This document shows, piece by piece, positions 1 to 62,025 of a DNA stretch of 64,000 nucleotides. Numbering within the stretch: position 1 is the first letter of the stretch; every line of letters begins with the position of its first letter. Location of the stretch: sequence record NC_031047.1. One strand, given 5' to 3'. The position numbers and the translations under genes are program-made. This DNA is from Escherichia phage HY03. A model generated the notes under the pieces. The model was not told where the DNA came from and searched no databases. It saw only the letters and a list, made by a program, of their open reading frames with translations.

Positions 1-33
1 TATAATTGGTCGAGGCAGAAGGATTCTAACCTT

Positions 34-64
<31 letters not shown>

Positions 65-86
65 ACAATTGAGCTATGCCCCGTAA

Positions 87-752
87 TTAAAATTTCATTT
101 TTCGACCTTTAAACCATCCTTCTGGAATTGGGTCAGTTTTCTTAATACGTTTAGAAACTTTTTCATCTAATGAATGAATCCACATCATACCAAATTGGGA
201 ATTCTTTTCACCTTGTTGGTGTTTATTTTTGGCGTGAGATTCTTTCATTTTATTAATAGTTTCAGGAGTATGATGCTTATTTAAAAATCTGCTATTATTT
301 AAAAATTTTTCCCTGTATTCAGGAGTTGACCACAAACGTTTAAATACATTTGAACCATGTTTACGATATTTTTCTTGAAGTAAAATATCATTTTTAAAAC
401 GTGACTTAAACGATTTAGCTCCTTTTAAACTAGCGTCTTTCTTCTGGTTTAGCATCCCAGGAATATTTATATGGTCCCATCCACCTTCACCACCTAATTT
501 CAAATTATAAACATCAGGGCGCTTTAAAAACTCTTCAGTCACAATATTCTTTTCTGACTCAAACATAGAGGTTTTATCGTCAAAGAACTCTAATATTTCT
601 TTAGAAAAATTTTCTATACCATACTTATCTTGAGCTCTTTTTAATAATTTACCAGAACCCATATATCCATCATCTAAATTTTCGGTAGAATGCACACCAA
701 TATAAATTTTATTATTAATTTTATTTGTTATTTTATAAGTGTAATGGAACAT
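87..752 (-). CDS. segB: GIY-YIG homing endonuclease (Seg-type)
   Basis: 221 aa; N-terminal GIY-YIG motifs (KIYIGVHST, YMGSGKLL); adjacent to tRNA cluster as segB is in T4; paralogous to ORF 42446..43063. Confidence 0.65.
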   Translation of the reverse strand: MFHYTYKITNKINNKIYIGVHSTENLDDGYMGSGKLLKRAQDKYGIENFSKEILEFFDDKTSMFESEKNIVTEEFLKRPDVYNLKLGGEGGWDHINIPGMLNQKKDASLKGAKSFKSRFKNDILLQEKYRKHGSNVFKRLWSTPEYREKFLNNSRFLNKHHTPETINKMKESHAKNKHQQGEKNSQFGMMWIHSLDEKVSKRIKKTDPIPEGWFKGRKMKF

Positions 753-1297: not shown

Positions 1298-1930
1298 TTA
1301 TTTATTACGTGAAAAAGACTGTTCTATCAATTCTGGACACTTTCGTTCTATCCATTTTCTAGCTTTTTGTGGGCTTATACCTATTATTTTAGCAGCTTTA
1401 CTAACCCATCCAAATTTAGAATAATCGATTTTAACTAATTCTTCGTAAATTTCATCAGTTAAAATCTTTTCATTAATATTTACCAGTAAATGATATAATT
1501 TGTTATCATTAGCAATTTTAATGAATCTTTTATAGTTTCCGCCTTTACTTAAACCTAATGAAGTAATTGCAGATGATATAGTAGCCGAATTTAATAATGC
1601 GTTTAAAATTTCTTCATCACTAACATTATAACGCTTTTTATTATTTTTAATATTTTTACCAGCAAAAGTATCAGTTTGCGAATGACAGTTTGGACATAAT
1701 AATCTTAAATTTGATTTAAGATGATTTTTGTTATTTCCATCAATATGGTCTAATTGCAGAACAATATGCTTATTTTGCCATTTTGAAATTTTACAAATTG
1801 CACACTCATATGGAAAAATATTTTCTTTTATTATTTTGTCTTTCAGCTTTCCTGTACTAAAATTTGGATGTTTTCCTTCAAAAATTTCAGCTAATTTAGT
1901 ATCCATAATATGATTCCCAATTATTAACAA
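1298..1930 (-). CDS. HNH homing endonuclease
   Basis: 210 aa; HNH motif CAICK...LQLDHIDGNNKNHLKSNLRLLCPNCH; abuts tRNA-Leu where T4 carries tRNA-Gln. Confidence 0.65.
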   Translation of the reverse strand: MLIIGNHIMDTKLAEIFEGKHPNFSTGKLKDKIIKENIFPYECAICKISKWQNKHIVLQLDHIDGNNKNHLKSNLRLLCPNCHSQTDTFAGKNIKNNKKRYNVSDEEILNALLNSATISSAITSLGLSKGGNYKRFIKIANDNKLYHLLVNINEKILTDEIYEELVKIDYSKFGWVSKAAKIIGISPQKARKWIERKCPELIEQSFSRNK

Positions 1931-2016: not shown

Positions 2017-2304
2017 TTACCATTTATGATGATACGTATTTACGATACATTCAAGACCCAAAGGATTCTTGAAAATATCATATTCAAGAGGACCTTTTTC
2101 TGTTTCAATAAAGAAATCAAAATTTACTGTATTAAATTTACGGTCTTCCTTCACTAATTTAACTTGAGAAGATGAACGGTCAACATAAACCTTTTCAACT
2201 TCAAAACATGTTAAAACGCCATAATCATCAATCAAGGCTTTAGCCGCGTCTTGATCATATTTATATCCATTTTCAATGGACGATACTTTAGCATAAAGAA
2301 TCAT
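2017..2304 (-). CDS. hypothetical protein (95 aa)
   Basis: ORF packed between neighbours on the early strand; no recognisable motif. Confidence 0.45.
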   Translation of the reverse strand: MILYAKVSSIENGYKYDQDAAKALIDDYGVLTCFEVEKVYVDRSSSQVKLVKEDRKFNTVNFDFFIETEKGPLEYDIFKNPLGLECIVNTYHHKW

Positions 2305-2307
2305 TAT

Positions 2308-2688
2308 TTACCCTTCATCAACAATAGTATGAGTGTGGGCATTTACAATTTGCCACCAATCAAAGCGATTAGAACCATACATTGGTTTGTTCTCATTTTC
2401 TTTGATAAGGTCACGGAGTTCATCTTCGGTAGCGGCTTTCGCGATTAAATCAGCATATCCACCGCGAGGATAATAATTATCACCTGCAAAAAGTAAAAAG
2501 TTCGGTTTAATATTATTGAACTCTTCAAGAGTAATAACTGTTCCACCAGGTTGAACAATATCTACATATTTATATCCCAATTTTTGGGCAGCATCTACTG
2601 CTTCAAGCAAAGTATCATGAGCCCATCCAATTTGACAACCTGGCTTTTCAGATGGATTAGCCTGATAATCCGCGTACACTTTATACAT
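2308..2688 (-). CDS. hypothetical protein
   Basis: ORF 2308..2727; likely start at internal Met (MYKVYADYQ) which avoids overlap with upstream ORF. Confidence 0.45.
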   Translation of the reverse strand: MYKVYADYQANPSEKPGCQIGWAHDTLLEAVDAAQKLGYKYVDIVQPGGTVITLEEFNNIKPNFLLFAGDNYYPRGGYADLIAKAATEDELRDLIKENENKPMYGSNRFDWWQIVNAHTHTIVDEG

Positions 2689-2689
2689 T

Positions 2690-2875
2690 CTATTCACCTT
2701 TAGAAATTTTATCCATAACGATAGCAATTAAACCAATTAAAAATGCTACTACAAGTGAAAACACATTTTCTGCTGTAGTTAATAATCCGCATATAAATCC
2801 AACAAACATTGAAAAACTAAAAGCGGAAGCAGAAATTGCAATAGCAACATTTCGAATTAATTCACAACGTTTCAT
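2690..2875 (-). CDS. small hydrophobic (membrane) protein, 61 aa
   Basis: 61-aa ORF with one long hydrophobic stretch; early promoter immediately upstream. Confidence 0.4.
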   Translation of the reverse strand: MKRCELIRNVAIAISASAFSFSMFVGFICGLLTTAENVFSLVVAFLIGLIAIVMDKISKGE

Positions 2876-2896
2876 TTTATTCTCCTCAGTAGTTGA

Positions 2897-2947
2897 TAGG
2901 GTAATAGTATCACAACTAAAACCCTATGTAAACAACTTTGTGAAATA
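2897..2947 (-). promoter_or_regulatory. T4 early-type (sigma70) promoter
   Basis: On minus strand: -35 GTTTAC (2928-2933), 18-bp spacer, -10 TACTAT (2904-2909), preceded by conserved AATTTCACAAAGTT element. Confidence 0.55.
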
Positions 2948-2951
2948 TTTA

Positions 2952-3239
2952 TTACAAAAGATTTTTAGCAATAATTTTGAGCTGAGCTACTGAAATATGC
3001 TTGGCTTTAAACAAAGCAGTTTCTTCAGCAGGAGAGATAACGATTGTAGCACCATCCTTTTTAGCAGACCACCCATCGCCTAGGTAAACAGTACCTTTGA
3101 TTTCTTCGCCATCAACCAGACTAATCATTGGTTTACCTTCTCGTCCTTTATTTGCTTTAATAACTTCAGAAGTAAGAGTAGCTTCGGTAATGGTAGAAAC
3201 CGGGGTAGTTGTAGAAGTAAACTCTTTGAAAGTTTTCAT
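2952..3239 (-). CDS. ipI: internal protein I (IPI), capsid-targeted and injected
   Basis: 95 aa; N-terminal capsid targeting sequence MKTFKEF...ITE|A, cleavage leaving 76 aa as for T4 IPI; next to 57B. Confidence 0.75.
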   Translation of the reverse strand: MKTFKEFTSTTTPVSTITEATLTSEVIKANKGREGKPMISLVDGEEIKGTVYLGDGWSAKKDGATIVISPAEETALFKAKHISVAQLKIIAKNLL

Positions 3240-3262
3240 TTTATTTTCCTAATTAATTTTGA

Positions 3263-3311
3263 TGAGATAATAGTATCACTACCTCATCAGCATGTAAACA
3301 ACTTTGTGAAA

Positions 3312-3312
<1 letters not shown>
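3263..3312 (-). promoter_or_regulatory. T4 early-type promoter upstream of ipI
   Basis: On minus strand: -35 GTTTAC (3294-3299), 18-bp spacer, -10 TACTAT (3270-3275), same AATTTCACAAAGTT upstream element. Confidence 0.55.
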
Positions 3313-4008
<696 letters not shown>

Positions 4009-54636: not shown

Positions 54637-55281
54637 TTATCCTTGAACGAACTTGTAAGGCATGTTTGCAATATCTATGCAAGACGCAATAATTCCAAGA
54701 GATGATTCTACTTTCTGTTTAACATTTGATGAAACAAATGATGCAAAGTCAACTCTGTCTTCTATTTCAATATCACCTGTCATTGCAACTACTTCACCAG
54801 TTTCCATTAGACGGTCACCGTCATAAATTACTGATTCGGTGAGTTCTTCCGTAGTCATAACTTCAGCTTGAATGAGTTTTGTATTATTAAATGTTGTTCC
54901 GTCATTATTAGAAGCATCAGTTATTTTATTAACTTTGACCATCAATCCACGTGGTAGAATAACTTCAGCTTCTGTTGCTATTCCGAGACTTCCTGGATAT
55001 ACAACATTAACTTTATGAGCTCCATCAATTGCCCATCCTATTTGAACTTTAACGTATTCAGGATTTTCTTTATACGCTCTTATTTCGTTTGGATTAATAG
55101 TTATTCCTTCTTCATTTTTATCAACTGTCAATTCATTACGAGCTTCTGGTTCTAAAAGACCGATACCAGCATGTGTAATTCCAAAACGTCCAAAAATGAT
55201 AGGAGTTAAAGAAGTAGATACAAAATTTCTGAAATAGAACACTTTATTTTTAACTAATGCTTCGTATATAGGAGCAGTCAA
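54637..55281 (-). CDS. ADP-ribosyltransferase-like protein, apparently N-terminally truncated (Alt/Mod-like)
   Basis: 214-aa ORF from a TTG start; STS motif (FVSTSLTP) and E-x-E (TEAEV) about 90 aa later, but no upstream Arg-motif region; in-frame stop 5 codons upstream. Confidence 0.4.
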   Translation of the reverse strand: MTAPIYEALVKNKVFYFRNFVSTSLTPIIFGRFGITHAGIGLLEPEARNELTVDKNEEGITINPNEIRAYKENPEYVKVQIGWAIDGAHKVNVVYPGSLGIATEAEVILPRGLMVKVNKITDASNNDGTTFNNTKLIQAEVMTTEELTESVIYDGDRLMETGEVVAMTGDIEIEDRVDFASFVSSNVKQKVESSLGIIASCIDIANMPYKFVQG

Positions 55282-56043: not shown

Positions 56044-56607
56044 ATGAAAACCTATGCCGAATTTTTAACTGAAGCAGCAAAATTACCATCTGAAGCAGAT
56101 CTTACTAAAGTATTCTTCCACTTGGACCCAAAAGACCGGGGCGATTTTCTTAAGTGGAAAGCTAAAGCTATTGAAATGTATAACATCGATAACAGTTCTT
56201 TTACGATGAGCCAAGAAAATAGTTTCAATAAAGCATTTTTCAAAATTTCTAAGAAATTGGCATCTGGCGCTCAGGTTTCTAAATCTGCATTAGCTACTCC
56301 TGAACGTGCACCTGTTAAAATTTCTAAGAATATGTTTGACACTAAAAAATATGTCAATGCTTTGAATAAAGCTCTTGATGCATTGGATGATGCAAAGAAG
56401 GCAGCCCGCGATCTTCAAGACGTGTATACCGATTTTGATCGTAAAACTAAAGGTTCTATTTCAAATAGCGAACGCAATAGTGTAAGTGTTTATTCTGATA
56501 GCCTTGATGTTCTTGGCGATGCATATACTGAAATTAAAAATCGTATTAACACCGCATCTAAGCTAAAAGCTGCTGCAGAAGCTATAATAACTAAACTAGG
56601 TAAATAA
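56044..56607 (+). CDS. internal-protein-like capsid-targeted protein
   Basis: 187 aa; N-terminal MKTYAEFLTE|A matches the T4 capsid targeting sequence cleaved by gp21. Confidence 0.6.
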   Translation: MKTYAEFLTEAAKLPSEADLTKVFFHLDPKDRGDFLKWKAKAIEMYNIDNSSFTMSQENSFNKAFFKISKKLASGAQVSKSALATPERAPVKISKNMFDTKKYVNALNKALDALDDAKKAARDLQDVYTDFDRKTKGSISNSERNSVSVYSDSLDVLGDAYTEIKNRINTASKLKAAAEAIITKLGK

Positions 56608-60246: not shown

Positions 60247-60777
<531 letters not shown>

Positions 60778-60781
60778 AGCT

Positions 60782-60811
60782 GTTTACTTTCTCTTAGAAT
60801 TGTGATAGTAT
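60782..60811 (+). promoter_or_regulatory. T4 early-type promoter
   Basis: -35 GTTTAC, 18-bp spacer, -10 TAGTAT, upstream of ORF 60871. Confidence 0.5.
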
Positions 60812-60870
60812 ATTCACAGTTACTTGAATAGACAATTACCAATTAAAATATTTACATTTAAAGGAAACAC

Positions 60871-61344
60871 ATGAAAACATATCAAGAATTTATTACTGAA
60901 GCAGCTATTAATTCTCAAATTATTGCTGAATCTTTTACTGATCTTTTGAAATTTAAAAAAGGACAGAAAATCACTGCTGTATTGGATGATGGTACAGAAG
61001 TTGAGATGGATGTACAGGGATATAATTATGCAGTAGATGGAAAACTGTATAATAAATCTCATGCTAAATTTGATTCATTTGACGACTTTGTTAATACAGT
61101 TGAAGATGAAAAAACTCGTCGATCCATTGCAACTGGTGATGCTAAGGTTCTTATGGCACATGGTCATGAACGCATTCGCGCTAAACAGAATAAAATGGGT
61201 GAAGATAATTTTGCATTAGTTGGTTATCAATCTGGTAAGCAAACTTATGGCTATCAGCGTACTGCTACCATGTATAATAAAAATGGTAAAATCGCTTTCG
61301 TGAATAGTAAAGGTTCTATTCAGTACGTTAAATCGTTCAAATAA
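60871..61344 (+). CDS. internal protein (ipII/ipIII position) with capsid targeting sequence
   Basis: 157 aa; N-terminal MKTYQEFITE|A is the T4 internal-protein targeting signal; lies beside gene e. Confidence 0.65.
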   Translation: MKTYQEFITEAAINSQIIAESFTDLLKFKKGQKITAVLDDGTEVEMDVQGYNYAVDGKLYNKSHAKFDSFDDFVNTVEDEKTRRSIATGDAKVLMAHGHERIRAKQNKMGEDNFALVGYQSGKQTYGYQRTATMYNKNGKIAFVNSKGSIQYVKSFK

Positions 61345-61485
61345 TATGGGAACAACCTGGACCTCATGATTCTGTGAGGGATTCCCGCCAACCTGTAATA
61401 AGGTCGAGCCCAAGTGCGGTAATGGGTAAATACAGAAATGGACAATTCATGCGCCATGGAATGGCCCAAACCTAGAGAGAACAAA

Positions 61486-62025
61486 ATGAGAACATTTTTA
61501 ACTGGTCCTTATCTATCCCTGATGAATGCTTTTACACACCATTCTGATGCTAGAGTAGAAGAAATTTGTAAAAACGATTATATCCCGCCATTTGAAGACT
61601 TACTTAAGCAGTATTGCACACTTCGACTAGATGGTGGACGTCAATCCGGTAAATCAACTGCAGTAACTAATTTTGCCGCTAATTGGTTGTATGACGGTGG
61701 AACAGTTATTGTTCTTTCTAATACTTCAGCTTACGCTAAAATTTCTGCAAATAGCATCAAAAAGGAATTTTTGCGTTATTCTAATGATGATATACGTTTT
61801 CGTTTATTTACTGATTCTGTGCGCAGTTTTATCGGTAATAAAGGAAGCAAGTTCAGAGGTTTAAAGCTTTCGCGAATTTTGTATATAATTGATGAGCCTG
61901 TCAAATCTCCTGATATGGATAAGATTTATAGTGTCCATATTGACACTGTACACTGCTGCTGTAATATTAAATGTTGTATTGGTGGTATTACTCGTCCACA
62001 GTTTTTCGTAATCGGAATGCAATGA
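61486..62025 (+). CDS. hypothetical P-loop NTPase-like protein
   Basis: ORF 61438..62025; Walker A-like GGRQSGKST and Walker B-like ILYIIDEP; start probably MRTFLT. Confidence 0.45.
   Translation: MRTFLTGPYLSLMNAFTHHSDARVEEICKNDYIPPFEDLLKQYCTLRLDGGRQSGKSTAVTNFAANWLYDGGTVIVLSNTSAYAKISANSIKKEFLRYSNDDIRFRLFTDSVRSFIGNKGSKFRGLKLSRILYIIDEPVKSPDMDKIYSVHIDTVHCCCNIKCCIGGITRPQFFVIGMQ

Follow-up and report, generated by a model that had tools for sequence, protein, structure and literature searches.

Downstream of its lysozyme gene, phage T4 carries genes in the order e, ipIII, ipII, denV and vs.8 (NC_000866), and the corresponding locus of Escherichia phage HY03 raises the question of what has taken the place of the T4 internal protein genes and what its product might do in the infected cell. 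We analysed a 64,000-nucleotide stretch of this phage (NC_031047.1; hereafter, the window), for which an earlier note had described a single capsid-targeted internal protein beside lysozyme. The open reading frame (ORF) listing confirmed this ORF, its MKTYQEFITE↓A start (the arrow marks the predicted cut) and its position next to e; nudE stands before e, giving the order nudE, e, ip4. Coordinates of all features are collected in Table 1.

The ORF almost certainly encodes Ip4. Its product matches Pfam DUF7412 (PF24183) at 319.4 bits (5.7e-96; curated cut-off, 27 bits), with residues 1–157 aligned to profile positions 1–158, and PHROG 3155, “internal virion protein”, at 6e-102. A tblastn search of 50,697 phage records found Ip4 in 469, of which 289 carry it at 99% identity or above, including teqskov, many Shigella phages and T2, RB3, RB18 and RB33, the last four with a homologue identical to the window protein. 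The full-length homologues in these 469 records (60–100% identity) and the Pfam score of 319 against a cut-off of 27 argue that the ORF is not a chance one. The homologue is annotated “Ip4, similar to T2, RB70 Ip4” in RB14 and Ip4 or ipIV in AR1, ime09 and Kha5h, and the BFVD structure library holds UniProt Q38388, “Ip4 [Enterobacteria phage K3]”, with 99% identity to the window protein; the old-style UniProt accession indicates that Ip4 was named long ago. The proteins of K3, T2, RB14, AR1 and ime09 are the same protein (99–100% over 157 aa) in the same position between e and vs.8, and the window shows no difference of substance from the known Ip4 phages, although some Tequatrovirus relatives, such as Yersinia phage phiD1, keep denV next to ip4 whereas the window does not. 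According to Silas et al. 2025, who cite Repoila et al. 1994, at least ten Ip proteins have been reported. As a gene, ip4 is known, named, ordinary and catalogued, with nothing new about it; the interpretation in the earlier note is supported and is not new.

Table 1 Coordinates and description of features in the window.
Feature	Position	Strand	Description
tRNA-Arg	7..83	opposite to the genes right of junction 55280/55281	Window start
ORF in or beside the tRNA cluster	87..752	-	
ORF in or beside the tRNA cluster	1298..1930	-	
Internal protein I (IPI), T4-type	2952..3239	-	95 aa; Pfam IPI_T4 5.4e-52, residues 20–95; propeptide ends ITE↓A
Truncated alt	54637..55281	-	C-terminal 214 residues only; left of the junction
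ORF with capsid-targeting sequence	56044..56607	+	187 aa; MKTYAEFLTE↓A; basic, mature pI ~9.5; PHROG 2280 “unknown function”
Two exact T4 late-promoter motifs TATAAATA	60249..60269 (starts 60249, 60262)	+	Pattern search; upstream of e
Lysozyme gene e	60283..60777	+	T4-type; conserved neighbour to the left of the ip cassette; related records name it e or lysozyme
e–ip4 intergenic leader	60778..60870	+	Nearly identical to the T4 e–ipIII intergenic; T4 ipII leader matched over the final ~25 nt
ip4 CDS	60871..61344	+	ATG, 157 codons and stop in the ORF listing; protein starts MKTYQEFITEAAINSQ
Capsid-targeting sequence (propeptide) MKTYQEFITE	60871..60900	+	Codons 1–10; 9/10 residues as in the T4 IPII/IPIII N-terminus MKTYQEFIAE
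Possible second gp21 site	60922..60930	+	Putative, from motif search; IAE (codons 18–20), then S21
Spacer after ip4	61345..61485	+	Homologous to the T4 sequence directly after the denV stop; marks the right cassette junction

We compared Ip4 with the T4 proteins that it replaces, the sizes of which the earlier note had given correctly (IPIII, 193 aa; IPII, 100 aa; NC_000866). BLASTP aligned T4 IPIII over residues 1–13 only, with 10 of the 13 identical, and T4 IPII weakly, with 31% identity over 77 gapped N-terminal columns (31 bits) driven by the capsid-targeting sequence (CTS); tblastn of T4 IPIII on the window matched only the two CTS sites. The protein therefore differs from both, as had been proposed, with no close full-length identity to either. 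Homology of mature Ip4 to IPII or IPIII was rejected because the alignment is confined to the CTS.

The nucleotide alignment with T4 located the edges of the replaced segment. The two sequences are near-identical over the end of e, the whole intergenic region and ~35 nucleotides at the start of the coding sequence (ATGAAAACATATCAAGAATTTATT.C.GAAGC), so that the left junction falls inside the CTS-coding sequence, beyond which similarity is lost. It returns directly behind the ip4 stop codon, where the matching T4 sequence is that downstream of the denV stop codon. These positions indicate that the ip4 cargo takes the place of the T4 ipIII cargo, the whole of ipII and denV. The suggestion that plasticity of the ip locus had put this gene in place of ipIII and ipII thus proved sound, ip4 lying exactly where T4 has ipIII-ipII-denV, and tblastn found IPIII, IPII or denV nowhere else in the window. 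A module of leader and CTS-coding DNA is common to ip4, T4 ipIII and T4 ipII, and is looser in the ip genes of other genera. It could plausibly serve as a portable homology arm for cassette exchange, and ip4 would have reached the locus in this way, with the ~60-nt leader and CTS module as the left arm and the sequence upstream of vs.8 as the right arm. denV is absent between ip4 and vs.8 in the window (T4 comparison region, 2254..2913 of the excerpt).

The N-terminus bears the signals expected of a packaged protein. The CTS-coding DNA of ip4 is nearly identical to the 5′ ends of T4 ipII and ipIII, and residues 8–11 form a motif of the type recognised by the prohead protease gp21, I-x-E followed by a small residue (ITE↓A). 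Both elements on which the earlier note had based a capsid-targeted internal protein are thus present. The IPI encoded in the window has the same ITE↓A motif ahead of its mature region. From what is known of gp21 in T4, Ip4 would be cleaved after Glu10. Possibly it is cleaved after Glu20 as well; Glu20 is nearly invariant in alignments of the family, and a distant member, P0016, has two LNE↓S motifs. Residues 1–20 have low pLDDT in both structural models of Ip4, as expected for a flexible propeptide. The predicted mature protein comprises 147 aa (cut at 10) or 137 aa (cut at 20), with a computed mass of ~15.5–16.5 kDa and a pI of 9.1–9.3, and is thus basic like IPII and IPIII. On a rival explanation, which we consider unlikely, Ip4 would be mainly a structural, DNA-associated head protein, serving the condensed genome as a basic counter-ion or packing aid and having no specific host target. 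Distant homologues with only 34–36% identity and diverged DNA still start with CTS-like sequences (MNFEQFLNE↓S and MNFKDFLNE↓S). That the CTS and the I/L-x-E motif are kept in the protein despite the diverged DNA argues for selection on the targeting signal itself, and Ip4 is very probably packaged and injected.

The sequence around ip4 offers signals for expression both early and late in infection. An AAGGA Shine–Dalgarno sequence lies at 60861–60865, 6–10 nt upstream of ip4, and two elements in the leader, GTTTAC (60782–60787) and TGaTAGTAT (60803–60811), resemble the T4 early promoter consensus; the site was absent from the output of a generic sigma-70 scan. An early-promoter-like sequence directly upstream of the gene would fit an explanation in which Ip4 is never packaged and acts only as an early cytoplasmic protein, its CTS-like N-terminus being a relic of recombination. 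Also in line with a relic is the outcome of our search of the literature, in which queries for Ip4 and DUF7412 returned nothing relevant and no virion proteomics or injection data on Ip4 were found. We nevertheless regard the relic explanation as extremely improbable, since the CTS and I/L-x-E motif persist in homologues of 34–36% identity and the late promoters upstream of e permit late expression. A scan of the + strand between e and ip4 found no terminator-like site. Late read-through transcription from the e promoters into ip4 is possible, and expression of ip4 both early and late is plausible.

The distribution of ip4 shows a gene that is frequent in phages and narrow as a family. It is commoner in the phage collection than IPIII (469 versus 261 records) and lies immediately 3′ of e in the window, in T2 and RB14, in Klebsiella Jiaodavirus KEN37 and in Salmonella Gelderlandvirus NP4. 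Other Tevenvirinae genera have tandem ip arrays behind e, headed by ip4. In KEN37 (2501..3631 of the excerpt), e is followed in tandem by two genes, one ip4-like and one ipIII-like, the product of the latter being 87% identical to T4 IPIII; this arrangement indicates that Ip4 and IPIII are not strictly alternatives. In NP4, e and ip4 are followed by the gene for an unrelated 87-aa CTS protein (MKTYEEFINE↓S) that has no Pfam family (2501..3324 of the excerpt). Among 5.8 billion proteins, the Ip4 family forms 14 clusters at 90% identity, and an exhaustive profile search of 1.8 billion representatives recovered only three distant relatives (34–36% identity) and some fragments. One of these relatives, P0015, sits on a 2.8-kb contig with uninformative context.

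An AlphaFold model of Ip4, confident when distant homologues were added to the alignment, has a mean pLDDT of 83.8 and a pTM of 0.78, with values over 90 for most of residues 21–157 and disorder in the first 20 residues. The modelled fold is a small β-barrel (strands in residues 33–54 and 113–156) into which three helices (residues 70–103) are inserted. A sequence search of solved structures had a designed protein as its best match (E = 6e-4) and no stretch that passed. The distant members have lost His64 and His99 and therefore lack a conserved catalytic constellation, and Ip4 is accordingly read as a binding protein and not an enzyme.

These features suggest a route by which Ip4 could act at the start of infection. 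The MKTYQEFITE sequence would direct the precursor into the scaffold core of the prohead, where gp21 would cut off the propeptide behind Glu10 and possibly make a second cut behind Glu20; the mature product, a basic protein, would then stay with the packaged DNA and enter the cell with it. Inside the cell, Ip4 would most likely inhibit a first-line host defence stoichiometrically and not as an enzyme, and the leading candidate target is a subtype of GmrSD type IV restriction enzymes, by analogy with T4 Ip1, Ip2 and Ip3. Taken as a whole, the account of a packaged, gp21-cut and injected anti-defence protein is, on balance, the probable one. By analogy with those proteins, we lean slightly towards an anti-defence role, and a GmrSD-type target in particular is a tentative proposal that we hold with less than even confidence. 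Enzymes of the GmrSD family cut glucosyl-hmC DNA. Each of T4 Ip1, Ip2 and Ip3 inhibits a single GmrSD type IV system, different for each of them, without cross-protection (PMC12373910), and IPIII is active in the cytoplasm without its CTS (PMC9391042).

The likeness of Ip4 to each of these proteins has clear bounds. T4 IPIII (Ip3), the inhibitor of the two-gene GmrSD of ECOR17, is encoded, like Ip4, directly 3′ of e behind a near-identical promoter, leader and CTS; its mature form is likewise basic and its delivery route presumably the same. The two nevertheless differ in size and are unlike beyond residues 1–13, and are not strict alleles. T4 IPII (Ip2), which inhibits GmrSD/BrxU of ECOR21, has the cassette array, leader and CTS in common with Ip4, while its sequence likeness is the weak N-terminal match described above. 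T4 IPI*, a small non-enzymatic inhibitor of the GmrSD of CT596, is packaged, cut by gp21 at ITE↓A and injected, but its locus adjoins the tRNA cluster, its propeptide has 19 residues and its sequence is unrelated; Ip4 gave no match to Pfam IPI_T4, and no relation to IPI* in sequence or fold was found. Given this absence of sequence or fold similarity, the analogy of function with IPI*, IPII and IPIII is drawn only from the delivery route and the locus.

Published restriction data narrow the range of targets. T2, which has Ip4 and no Ip3, is restricted by GmrSD-ECOR17 and remains sensitive to GmrSD-ECOR21 (PMC12373910); as its Ip4 is identical to that of the window, neither system is a target of Ip4. 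In the same work (section 10, Supplementary Fig. 9), none of ip4-10 reproducibly inhibited any of five further active GmrSD variants, the “ip4” of that paper being equated with the window protein by name and by its K3/T2 origin. The lack of a hit for ip4-10 across eight GmrSD systems would be explained if Ip4 were an injected inhibitor outside type IV restriction, with a target such as a nuclease of another kind, a sensor of abortive infection or a host enzyme encountered in the first minute of infection. The co-occurrence of Ip4 and IPIII in Klebsiella phages, which makes them non-redundant, and the unrelatedness of the Ip4 fold to IPI* point the same way. Yet all three characterised proteins delivered by this route inhibit GmrSD enzymes, of which only a small part of the diversity (15 groups) was sampled, and we judge a target outside type IV restriction improbable.

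More broadly, we see an even chance that Ip4 is injected to inhibit a host defence to which no internal protein has so far been linked, and that its fold resembles no solved structure; that defence could be a GmrSD subtype yet to be tried or first-response immunity of another class. If this is the case, the conservation of Ip4 beside e across several Tevenvirinae genera would imply that the target is widespread in Enterobacteria. Among the proteins that therapeutic and model T-even phages inject, Ip4 would be one of the most common, with a target that escaped the one published screen. Identifying this target, a real question that the field already recognises, would extend the map of host-range determinants for Tequatrovirus and the related Klebsiella and Salmonella phages, and the exact cassette junctions and confident structural model are small practical aids to the search.

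Ip4 is not the only internal protein of this phage. The description of a “single” internal protein holds for the interval from e to vs.8 and fails for the window, which also encodes IPI and a 187-aa CTS-bearing ORF. With IPI and Ip4 both encoded, the phage carries at least Ip1 and Ip4. The 187-aa ORF, which had no Pfam family above threshold, is present in 163 phage records and is a “hypothetical protein” or without annotation in all the rows listed; its RB14 homologue is named ncORF136c, not an Ip. Judged by its sequence, it is probably an internal protein missed by annotation.

The relatively G+C-rich spacer after ip4 was considered as a structured RNA or intron remnant, and this was rejected because it had no Rfam match and a fold z-score of +0.5. 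It is instead conserved sequence upstream of vs.8, which T4 annotates as coding. The first ~40 codons of the T4-annotated vs.8 N-terminus (MRDSRQPVIRSS...) are broken in the window by a stop and an 8-nt gap, and a 33-aa ORF in the spacer (61374..61475) ends at the stop. The ATG at 61486 (MRTFLTG) is probably where the conserved vs.8 reading frame starts, and the N-terminal extension annotated in T4 appears doubtful.

The window also contains a junction, at 55280/55281, that is spanned by 0 of 758 matching phage records. The sequence left of this point is collinear with T6 106–123 kb and breaks off inside alt. On the right lie genes that normally adjoin tRNA-Arg, which in the window stands at the opposite end, and 10 nt (AGTGAGGAAA) are missing between the tRNA-Arg end and the junction end. 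The junction is either a ~55-kb inversion or an artefact of the record or assembly, with the record start at the breakpoint. The tRNA cluster comprises seven tRNAs, without the Tyr and Asn genes that RB14 and G4498 have. Inspection by eye suggests a GIY-YIG (SegB-like) endonuclease for one of the two ORFs in or beside this cluster and an HNH endonuclease for the other.
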